IMG/VR virus record: IMGVR_UViG_3300009081_000009
Location: 100,709 to 164,708 of that record
Length of the DNA: 64,000 bases
Strand: one strand, 5' to 3'
DNA from: a virus
Positions 23,563 through 24,363 of this stretch are shown here, one piece after another; position 1 is the stretch's first letter, and each line of letters opens with the position of its first letter. The position numbers were made by a program, and so were the translations under genes. The notes under the pieces were generated by a model. The model was not told where the DNA came from, ran no database searches, and saw nothing but the letters and a program-made list of their open reading frames with translations.

Positions 23563-23589
23563 CTAACTTGTTTTTAAAGGAATGATATT

Positions 23590-23640
23590 ATGATTATTGC
23601 AACTGTATATGAACGTGAAGAGGAACGAATGCGCTATTGA
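23590..23640 (+). CDS. putative leader peptide MIIATVYEREEERMRY
   Basis: aaagga SD; GAA CGT GAA GAG GAA upstream of five tRNA-Glu. Confidence 0.85.
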   Translation: MIIATVYEREEERMRY

Positions 23641-23672
23641 ACATGCGTAGTAAATAATCGTATTCGATTTTT

Positions 23673-23705
23673 ACCTCATGTTCAGAAGAACGTGAGGTTT
23701 TTTAT
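23673..23705 (+). terminator. attenuator terminator (Glu group)
   Basis: acctcatgttc-agaa-gaacgtgaggt-ttttt. Confidence 0.85.
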
Positions 23706-23707
23706 TT

Positions 23708-23779
23708 GTCTGATTCGACTAGTGGTTAGGTCGCGAGATTTTCAATCTTGAAACACCAGTTCAATTCTGGTATCAGATA
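23708..23779 (+). tRNA. tRNA-Glu(TTC)
   Basis: cgaga-ttTTCaa-tcttg. Confidence 0.85.
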
Positions 23780-23783
23780 CTAT

Positions 23784-23856
23784 GGCATCATCGTCTATTT
23801 GGTTAGGACATCTCCCTTTCAAGGAGAAAAATTGGGTTCAATCCCCAATGATGCTA
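23784..23856 (+). tRNA. tRNA-Glu(TTC)
   Basis: tctcc-ctTTCaa-ggaga. Confidence 0.9.
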
Positions 23857-23860
23857 TTAT

Positions 23861-23933
23861 GACTGTGTTGAGTAAAGGTTAGCTCACCTCCCTTTCAAGG
23901 AGAAAATGTCGGGTTCGAGTCCCACCACAGTTA
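23861..23933 (+). tRNA. tRNA-Glu(TTC)
   Basis: ctcc-ctTTCaa-ggag. Confidence 0.85.
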
Positions 23934-23937
23934 CTAT

Positions 23938-24009
23938 GCTCGTATGGACTAAAGGTTAGGTCGGTTGATTCTCAATCAGCAAATAGGGGTTCAATTCCCC
24001 TTACGAGTA
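23938..24009 (+). tRNA. tRNA-Glu(CTC)
   Basis: gttga-ttCTCaa-tcagc. Confidence 0.85.
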
Positions 24010-24029
24010 CTATTATAAAGGAGAACACA

Positions 24030-24281
24030 ATGTATAAGATAAGTGATGTTATTAACGCAGAAACCAAAAATTATAAAGCGATTTTTTCGTTTTATCGTTC
24101 TGGTAAGTTGTACTATACTGTGATTGATGATAACGGAAAGGCTATATGGGAATTTCCAGTGGATATCACCGATACGCATGATATTGGGGATGCTACATTT
24201 TCATCGGAATTTAAAGCAATCACACTAATGAGATATATCAGAAAGGCAATAGATTCTGAATCTCTTATTAAGTTAGCATAA
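24030..24281 (+). CDS. hypothetical protein inside Glu tRNA group
   Basis: aaggag SD, 83 aa. Confidence 0.7.
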   Translation: MYKISDVINAETKNYKAIFSFYRSGKLYYTVIDDNGKAIWEFPVDITDTHDIGDATFSSEFKAITLMRYIRKAIDSESLIKLA

Positions 24282-24288
24282 GTATTAT

Positions 24289-24363
24289 GGTCGCATCTTC
24301 ACTAATTGGTTAGGTAGCTAGACTTTCAATCTGGAAATACGGGTTCGAGTCCCGTTGCGACTA
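24289..24363 (+). tRNA. tRNA-Glu(TTC)
   Basis: ctaga-ctTTCaa-tctgg. Confidence 0.8.

Follow-up and report, generated by a model that had tools for sequence, protein, structure and literature searches.

The tRNA-Glu genes of a large, uncultured phage from freshwater (record IMGVR_UViG_3300009081_000009) are preceded by a putative leader-peptide attenuator (here called the Glu gate), made up of a short Glu-rich reading frame, an antiterminator and an intrinsic terminator. The window analysed is the last 64 kb of this 164,708-bp record (positions 100,709 to 164,708; 33% GC), and coordinates refer to the window unless another sequence is named. The gate is likely to work by ribosome-mediated attenuation, opening when Glu codons are decoded slowly, and to be nested behind a first gate that reads Asn, Arg and Glu. 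The phage would thus probably make tRNA-Glu only when ribosomes read Glu codons slowly. A preliminary description of the window had proposed a leader-peptide attenuator at this site; its anatomy is present and is conserved in two relatives, and this arrangement suggests a response to Glu-tRNA. The gate and its cargo comprise the following features.

23576-23582, plus strand: Shine-Dalgarno (SD) sequence AAAGGAA, with AGGA 8 nucleotides (nt) upstream of the ATG; an SD is also present in the relatives L001 and L010.
23590-23640, plus strand: Glu leader open reading frame (ORF) of 16 codons, MIIATVYEREEERMRY, with its TGA stop at 23638.
23611-23625, plus strand: putative sensing block GAA CGT GAA GAG GAA, the last codons at which a stall keeps the antiterminator strand free in the folding model.
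23637-23685, plus strand: antiterminator, a three-tier hairpin with an outer helix (23637-23645 with 23677-23685) and inner helices within 23650-23674.
23673-23707, plus strand: intrinsic terminator, with an 11-bp stem (23673-23698), a 4-nt loop (AGAA) and the U-tract TTTTTTATTT (23699-23707).
23708-24010, plus strand: tRNA-Glu genes 1-4 (TTC, TTC, TTC, CTC), spaced 2-3 nt apart, called by ARAGORN and Rfam.
24030-24281, plus strand: 83-residue ORF with an SD, phrog_20427 (function unknown), within the gated unit.
24289-24363, plus strand: tRNA-Glu gene 5 (TTC), with a weak Rfam score of 32.9 bits and no promoter between it and tRNA-Glu 4.

The Glu leader begins 26 nt past a tRNA-Arg gene. The SD and the three GAA codons (23611, 23617, 23623) and one GAG codon (23620) named in the preliminary description are all present, giving four Glu in five codons, and Arg codons are found at 23614 (CGT), 23626 (CGA) and 23632 (CGC). 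Judged from its sequence, the leader is a translatable ORF with a ribosome-binding site, and codons for the amino acid that would be sensed are clustered in it. At least four Glu in 15 residues is an uncommon composition relative to the phage proteome (P = 0.011). Two of the 2,892 small ORFs screened (ATG start, 10-40 codons, both strands of the 165-kb genome) have four Glu in five codons, and only the Glu leader is preceded by an SD. An overlapping +1-frame ORF from 23609 was rejected because it lacks an SD and because exchanges of GAA and GAG between homologues are non-synonymous in that frame.

The sequence TGAACATG (23638-23645), which includes the stop codon, is the exact complement of CATGTTCA (23677-23684) in the terminator 5' arm, the segment that terminator and antiterminator share. 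The perfect 8-nt complementarity spanning the stop codon that had been noticed earlier is thus real, and a match of this kind between the end of an ORF and a terminator arm arises in 40 of 5,000 shuffles. When the 5' strand is free, the nascent RNA folds into the antiterminator (-16.2 kcal/mol; -20.5 in L001), occupying the terminator 5' arm, and the terminator folds (-19.1) once the stretch that a ribosome on the stop codon would cover is left out. As in the attenuator class, an intrinsic terminator separates the leader from its regulated genes, and the 5' strand of a mutually exclusive antiterminator would be masked by a ribosome at or near the stop. The regulated cargo is the five tRNA-Glu genes and the 83-residue ORF, and not the biosynthesis or synthetase genes by which that class is also defined.

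The sensing geometry was modelled by masking a 28-nt ribosome footprint for each codon in the ribosomal aminoacyl (A) site and folding the transcript before the terminator 3' arm exists; folding of the nascent transcript was used because equilibrium folding with the full terminator gives no switch in the window sequence. In this constrained folding the terminator arm is sequestered (P ~0.99-1.0) in all three homologues with the A site at any codon through the last Glu. Sequestration drops to 0.05-0.45 within three codons past the last Glu (0.06-0.88 at the first of them, across the three homologues), suggesting that the Glu block forms the 3' edge of the permissive zone.

L001 (IMG/VR) and L010 (a metagenome contig) were retrieved through the neighbouring PARP-like gene, in which they are 74% and 76% identical, and both have the Glu gate. 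Both retain the SD and the place of the TGA, and a 3-nt indel leaves their reading frame intact. The leader core VYEREEERM is kept, its only nucleotide changes being GAA/GAG swaps that are synonymous in the leader frame, and the N-terminal residues vary freely among the homologues. The antiterminator is paired in 96.6% of cells of the three-sequence alignment, with one double change and two wobble-preserving changes, one of which is a C-to-U in the TGAATATG of L010. The terminator is paired in 93.9% of cells, with one compensatory change from U-A to C-G, and sliding the partners by 1-3 columns leaves only 30-53% of cells paired. These covariation counts, drawn from aligned sequences, are consistent with the structure and are not proof of it.

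The gate of L001 and L010 sits behind a gene for a 154-residue protein, not behind a tRNA gene, and the L001 copy of the protein gene is served by a promoter of its own, suggesting that the conserved unit is the gate and not the nesting. On this comparison the portable conserved unit is the SD, leader, antiterminator, terminator and tRNA-Glu. The number of tRNA-Glu copies behind the gate is two in L001 (739-905), two in L010 (388 onward) and five here. ARAGORN and Rfam agree with the five genes (four TTC and one CTC) listed in the preliminary description, and these copies are highly divergent, with 59% column identity. Contigs from four DNA sequencing runs contribute strain variants only; one of them (run X2) joins 23706 to 23907, omitting 200 nt.

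Further searches returned little beyond these sequences. A back-translated pattern of the YEREEERM core recovered only the contig of L001 from IMG/VR; other matches to it were set aside as chance, one in L006 inside a GC-rich terminase gene and one in an alphaproteobacterial metagenome-assembled genome. A pattern of the RNA core returned L001 and 14 chance matches from IMG/VR, the 154-residue ORF of L001 as query matched only itself, and a 619-residue glycosyltransferase used as query for relatives gave no match. More distant relatives that carry the PARP-like gene (L003, L004, L009 and others) lack gates and have at most a few tRNA genes nearby. A relative at 58% identity (L002/L008) has a block for Asn, Glu, Asp, Met, Ile, Ala, Thr, Gly, Pro, Val and Arg. 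The single 38-codon leader of L002 tracks this block (33 of 37 residues cognate, P = 2e-4), and its tail is the antiterminator strand. A transfer-messenger RNA gene lies inside the gated array of L002 (16412-16764).

The Glu gate belongs to a longer unit, in the order promoter, gate 1, three tRNA-Asn and tRNA-Arg(TCT), gate 2 (the Glu gate), four tRNA-Glu, the 83-residue ORF and tRNA-Glu 5. The upstream part contains the following features.

23033-23061, plus strand: promoter for the entire unit, TTGACA-17-TATATT preceded by an A-rich element, the sole strong promoter 5' of the Glu gate.
23086-23160, plus strand: first-tier leader ORF, with four Asn codons followed by Glu, Arg(AGA) and Glu.
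23186-23213, plus strand: first-tier intrinsic terminator.
23234-23563, plus strand: three tRNA-Asn(GTT) genes and tRNA-Arg(TCT), the cargo of gate 1, called by ARAGORN and Rfam.

Phage promoters are very regular (TTGACA-N16-18-TATATT), with about 20 in the window. No site within two mismatches of this consensus is found in 23214-23600, in agreement with the earlier remark that the Glu leader has no separate promoter. A weak promoter-like site at 23557 (9/12) was rejected, having four mismatches to the phage consensus and a start that would fall 3' of the ATG. Downstream of the leader, the U-tract ends at 23707 and the first tRNA-Glu starts at 23708, leaving no space for a promoter between them. 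Since the terminator adjoins the first tRNA-Glu and no promoter intervenes, the tRNA-Glu genes appear to be reachable only by read-through. Two attenuators in series had been proposed to act as sequential logic; the serial arrangement holds in this genome, and the logic itself is something that the arrangement would permit. Glu15 and Arg16(AGA) of the first leader lie within the permissive zone of gate 1, so Glu limitation could open both gates, and limitation for Asn or Arg(AGA) only the first. A second nested gate lies outside the window, where a Lys/Gln leader begins 35 nt past tRNA-Phe with no space for a promoter.

The proposed mechanism would run as follows. A polymerase starting at the 23033 promoter would pass gate 1, transcribe the three tRNA-Asn and the tRNA-Arg, and then enter the Glu leader, where a ribosome would load at the SD and translate the 16 codons closely behind it. 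With fast Glu decoding, the ribosome would reach the tail codons and the TGA and cover TGAACATG, leaving the terminator 5' arm free; the 11-bp terminator would then fold and transcription would end one base before tRNA-Glu. With scarce Glu-tRNA, the ribosome would stall in 23611-23625, so that 23637-23645 could pair with 23677-23685 as soon as the latter is made. The antiterminator formed in this way would block the terminator, and the five tRNA-Glu genes and the 83-residue ORF would be transcribed. The inner hairpin and the U-run at 23656-23672 could serve as a pause site. Since the tRNA-Glu product would relieve the stall, the loop may be a negative-feedback controller of Glu decoding capacity. 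The anatomy, its conservation, the statistics and the alternative pairings are shown by the sequences; we infer that the leader is translated, that the two helices compete kinetically and that the gate responds to tRNA-Glu.

Several points weigh against this reading. Coupling of transcription and translation in the host is assumed. The conservation comes from three homologues only, and their covariation is not significant versus shuffles (174/500 and 163/500). When equilibrium folding includes the complete terminator, the terminator of the window dominates in every ribosome state, so the switch would have to be kinetic, like that of trp. Neither an anti-antiterminator (a 1:2-type hairpin) nor any segment complementary to the antiterminator 5' strand was found at the leader; with no ribosome present, the terminator arm is sequestered (P = 0.97-1.0) and read-through is predicted, so the untranslated state would be ON, unlike trp. 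A further point is TGAACGTGA, a stretch overlapping the first two Glu codons and complementary to the terminator 5' arm; codon choice may therefore be partly dictated by the RNA. With a ribosome on the stop codon, TGAACGTGA re-sequesters the terminator arm in the model, which ignores ribosome bulk. The preliminary description had cautioned that three Arg codons in the leader have no cognate tRNA in this group. This caution stands for CGT, the only one of them within the sensing block and without a cognate tRNA downstream, and loses weight for CGA and CGC, which are in the tail, where a stalled ribosome in the model leaves the terminator arm less sequestered.

In favour of the reading, seven tRNA blocks of the genome each have a small ORF and a terminator 9 to ~120 nt upstream of the first tRNA. 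Their leader compositions mirror the cargo: Tyr/Met/Phe/Lys; Lys/Gln; six Gln in a row; Leu/Ser/Trp/Cys/His (15 of 23 residues); four Asn with Arg(AGA) and Glu; Glu; and Ala/Gly/Met/Thr/Ile/Arg/Val/Asp (25 of 27 residues). The true pairing of leaders to blocks ranks first among the 5,040 permutations of the seven gates, and in all seven the cognate codon block ends at the end of the permissive zone. Within the set of small ORFs screened, runs of four Asn, runs of six Gln and dense Lys/Gln stretches are confined to these leaders. The design of codon-matched leader, terminator and stop-proximal antiterminator is found here, in the six other gates of the same genome, and in gates of L001, L010 and L002. 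At the large Ala-to-Asp block, L001 and the window do not share the sequences of antiterminator and terminator arm, yet in each the two remain complementary.

Some blocks have features of their own. A near-consensus promoter (TTGACT-16-TATATT, ~2975-3005, minus strand) lies within the Leu/Ser/Trp/Cys/His block, before its fourth tRNA (Leu-TAA, 2967), so distal tRNAs there may bypass the gate. The six-Gln leader (genome ~17,780-17,890, minus strand, outside the window) starts ~7 nt past the -10 box of its own consensus promoter, which would make its mRNA leaderless. It ends in Arg-Pro-Pro-Asp, a possible stalling tail, and a simple complement search found no clear antiterminator at this gate. 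Two tRNA-Pro genes (20028-20334, plus strand) have a consensus promoter and a 17-codon ORF (20097-20150) with Pro-Pro, and no canonical terminator. With 2 of 16 residues matching (P = 0.11), this Pro leader is a weaker candidate for a gate. An HNH endonuclease gene (20391-21017) lies downstream.

The Glu gate could also be a ribosome-dependent switch that reports general translation status, or Arg-CGU as much as Glu. Because its default without a ribosome is read-through, such a gate would open upon any collapse of initiation or elongation, and in the model a stall at any codon before the tail is equally permissive. The conserved CGT inside the block and the partial constraint of the Glu-codon stretch by its complementarity to the terminator arm fit this explanation as well. 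It does not account for the block itself, in which four of five codons are Glu in all three homologues despite synonymous swaps, and a generic sensor would have no need of seven gates with distinct, cargo-matched codon sets. We regard a general or Arg-directed switch as unlikely.

An explanation that seems improbable to a similar degree is that the terminator is constitutive and partly leaky, or is a processing site, and only fixes how much Asn/Arg tRNA is made relative to tRNA-Glu, with a small ORF that is untranslated or non-regulatory. The dominance of the terminator of the window at equilibrium agrees with this, as does the statistical weakness of covariation among three sequences. A non-regulatory ORF would not be expected to keep its SD, frame, stop position and Glu codons, the frame even surviving a 3-nt indel, nor would an idle antiterminator strand of 8-9 nt over the stop be kept through a C-to-U change that preserves pairing. 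The leader is moreover the only Glu-dense, SD-preceded ORF of its kind in the genome, and six other tRNA blocks have the same design with matched codons.

Read-through might also be timed by a phage or host antitermination factor, and not by a ribosome on the leader. Large phages often time gene classes, and the tRNA promoters resemble strong early sigma-70 promoters. No factor-binding motif common to the seven gates was seen, however, only the matched leader, antiterminator and terminator being common to them, and the match of codons to tRNAs would be left unexplained, making a timing factor very unlikely. Direct sensing of uncharged tRNA by a T-box-like RNA, which would also use a terminator/antiterminator pair to read tRNA status, can practically be dismissed, since the element is only ~130 nt long, contains a conserved translatable ORF and matches no T-box or other Rfam family even at E up to 1.

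The leader-peptide attenuator favoured here has close parallels in known systems. Leader-peptide attenuation is textbook control of amino-acid supply. A cmscan search of 19500-34500 at E up to 1 returned only tRNAs and sub-threshold chance matches at the leader, with no leader family and no T-box, and a full-text literature search found no description of leader-peptide attenuation controlling tRNA genes. Here the same machinery appears to control tRNA supply. The closest system is the E. coli pheST attenuator with its pheM leader, which likewise has a short leader rich in one amino acid and a terminator/antiterminator pair, and controls a translation component of the same amino acid by sensing the speed of the leader ribosome. 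The cargo of pheST is an aminoacyl-tRNA synthetase, whereas here it is tRNA genes; there is no sequence relation, and no 1:2-type anti-antiterminator is found here. Since the cargo is the tRNA genes themselves, the output would act directly on the decoding step that is sensed.

The trpL, hisL, leuL and pheL attenuators resemble the Glu gate in having an SD and a leader of 14-30 codons, clustered regulatory codons, a stop beside the antiterminator 5' strand, and a terminator and antiterminator that share a 5' arm and compete kinetically. They differ in that they target biosynthetic enzymes in response to amino-acid supply, and in having four segments, so that a lack of translation leads to termination, where read-through is predicted here. 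The multi-amino-acid leaders thrL and ilvL are comparable to the first-tier Asn/Arg/Glu gate and the other multi-amino-acid gates of this phage, but the Glu gate is monovalent, and the codon sets here mirror downstream tRNAs and not a shared metabolic pathway. The tandem S-adenosylmethionine/adenosylcobalamin riboswitches of Bacillus clausii metE are likewise two serial terminator switches that must both be open. Those are ligand-binding RNAs that both precede the first gene; here the sensors would be ribosomes on two leaders, with cargo between the gates, making control hierarchical and not purely Boolean. T-boxes also link terminator/antiterminator control to the status of a particular tRNA, but they bind uncharged tRNA without translation and mostly control synthetase and amino-acid genes.

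The record encodes 57 tRNA genes, which together serve all 20 amino acids and of which 46 lie inside the window, and its sequence is present in freshwater and sediment metagenome runs. The large terminase is T4-type, with ~36% identity to cyanophage terminases. The record also encodes ribonucleotide reductase, a CCA-adding enzyme, an Rnl1-like RNA ligase, NAD-salvage enzymes and a PARP-like protein. The CCA-adding enzyme (13355-14608), the RNA ligase (51142-52299) and a further nucleotidyltransferase (52873-53991), all on the plus strand, look like a tRNA repair and maturation kit alongside the 57 tRNA genes. The PARP-like protein has WGR, PARP regulatory and PARP catalytic domains and is encoded immediately downstream of the Glu block; NAMPT-like and NAD synthetase genes are present as well.

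24443-25798, plus strand: PARP-like gene.
41280-42527, plus strand: NAMPT-like gene.
45311-47272, plus strand: NAD synthetase gene.

Several tRNA genes are unusual. ARAGORN calls an 83-nt tRNA within the Leu/Ser block (2519-2601, minus strand) whose anticodon has four letters (tata) and whose anticodon loop is enlarged; it might read quadruplets, be unusual in some other way, or be a mis-call. The tRNA-Ser(ACT) (2241-2324, minus strand) and tRNA-Leu(AAG) (2700-2783, minus strand) have A at the wobble position, which is unusual for bacterial-type tRNAs except Arg(ACG). The Asn (85 nt, 23317-23401), Ile (88 nt, 33105-33192) and His (83 nt, 1590-1672, minus strand) tRNAs are long for normally short classes, which suggests extra arms or insertions. 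L001 has one 88-nt tRNA-Glu and two 88-nt tRNA-Ile.

More tentatively, and with rather less confidence than in the attenuator itself, the Glu gate may be one module of a phage-encoded, codon-resolved tRNA homeostat, in which serial gates gauge decoding speed for each codon family. Each gate would turn on only its matching phage tRNA genes, so that loss of host tRNAs through shut-off or anticodon-nuclease defences would be answered with exactly the tRNAs that are missing. Nesting would give hierarchical control from one promoter, and the phage CCA-adding enzyme and RNA ligase might belong to the same programme of tRNA maintenance.

If the attenuator reading is correct, the quantity sensed, decoding speed at a codon family, would be corrected directly by the output, closing a feedback loop. 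It would also explain how phages with very large tRNA sets, such as the 57 here, avoid constant expression of all of them, and would bear on why phages carry tRNAs at all, whether for codon usage, for host shut-off or for escape from tRNA-cleaving defences. The gates are ~130 nt, modular and codon-specific, and the Glu gate is found behind a tRNA gene or a protein gene, suggesting that they could be ready natural codon-specific sensors of translation speed.

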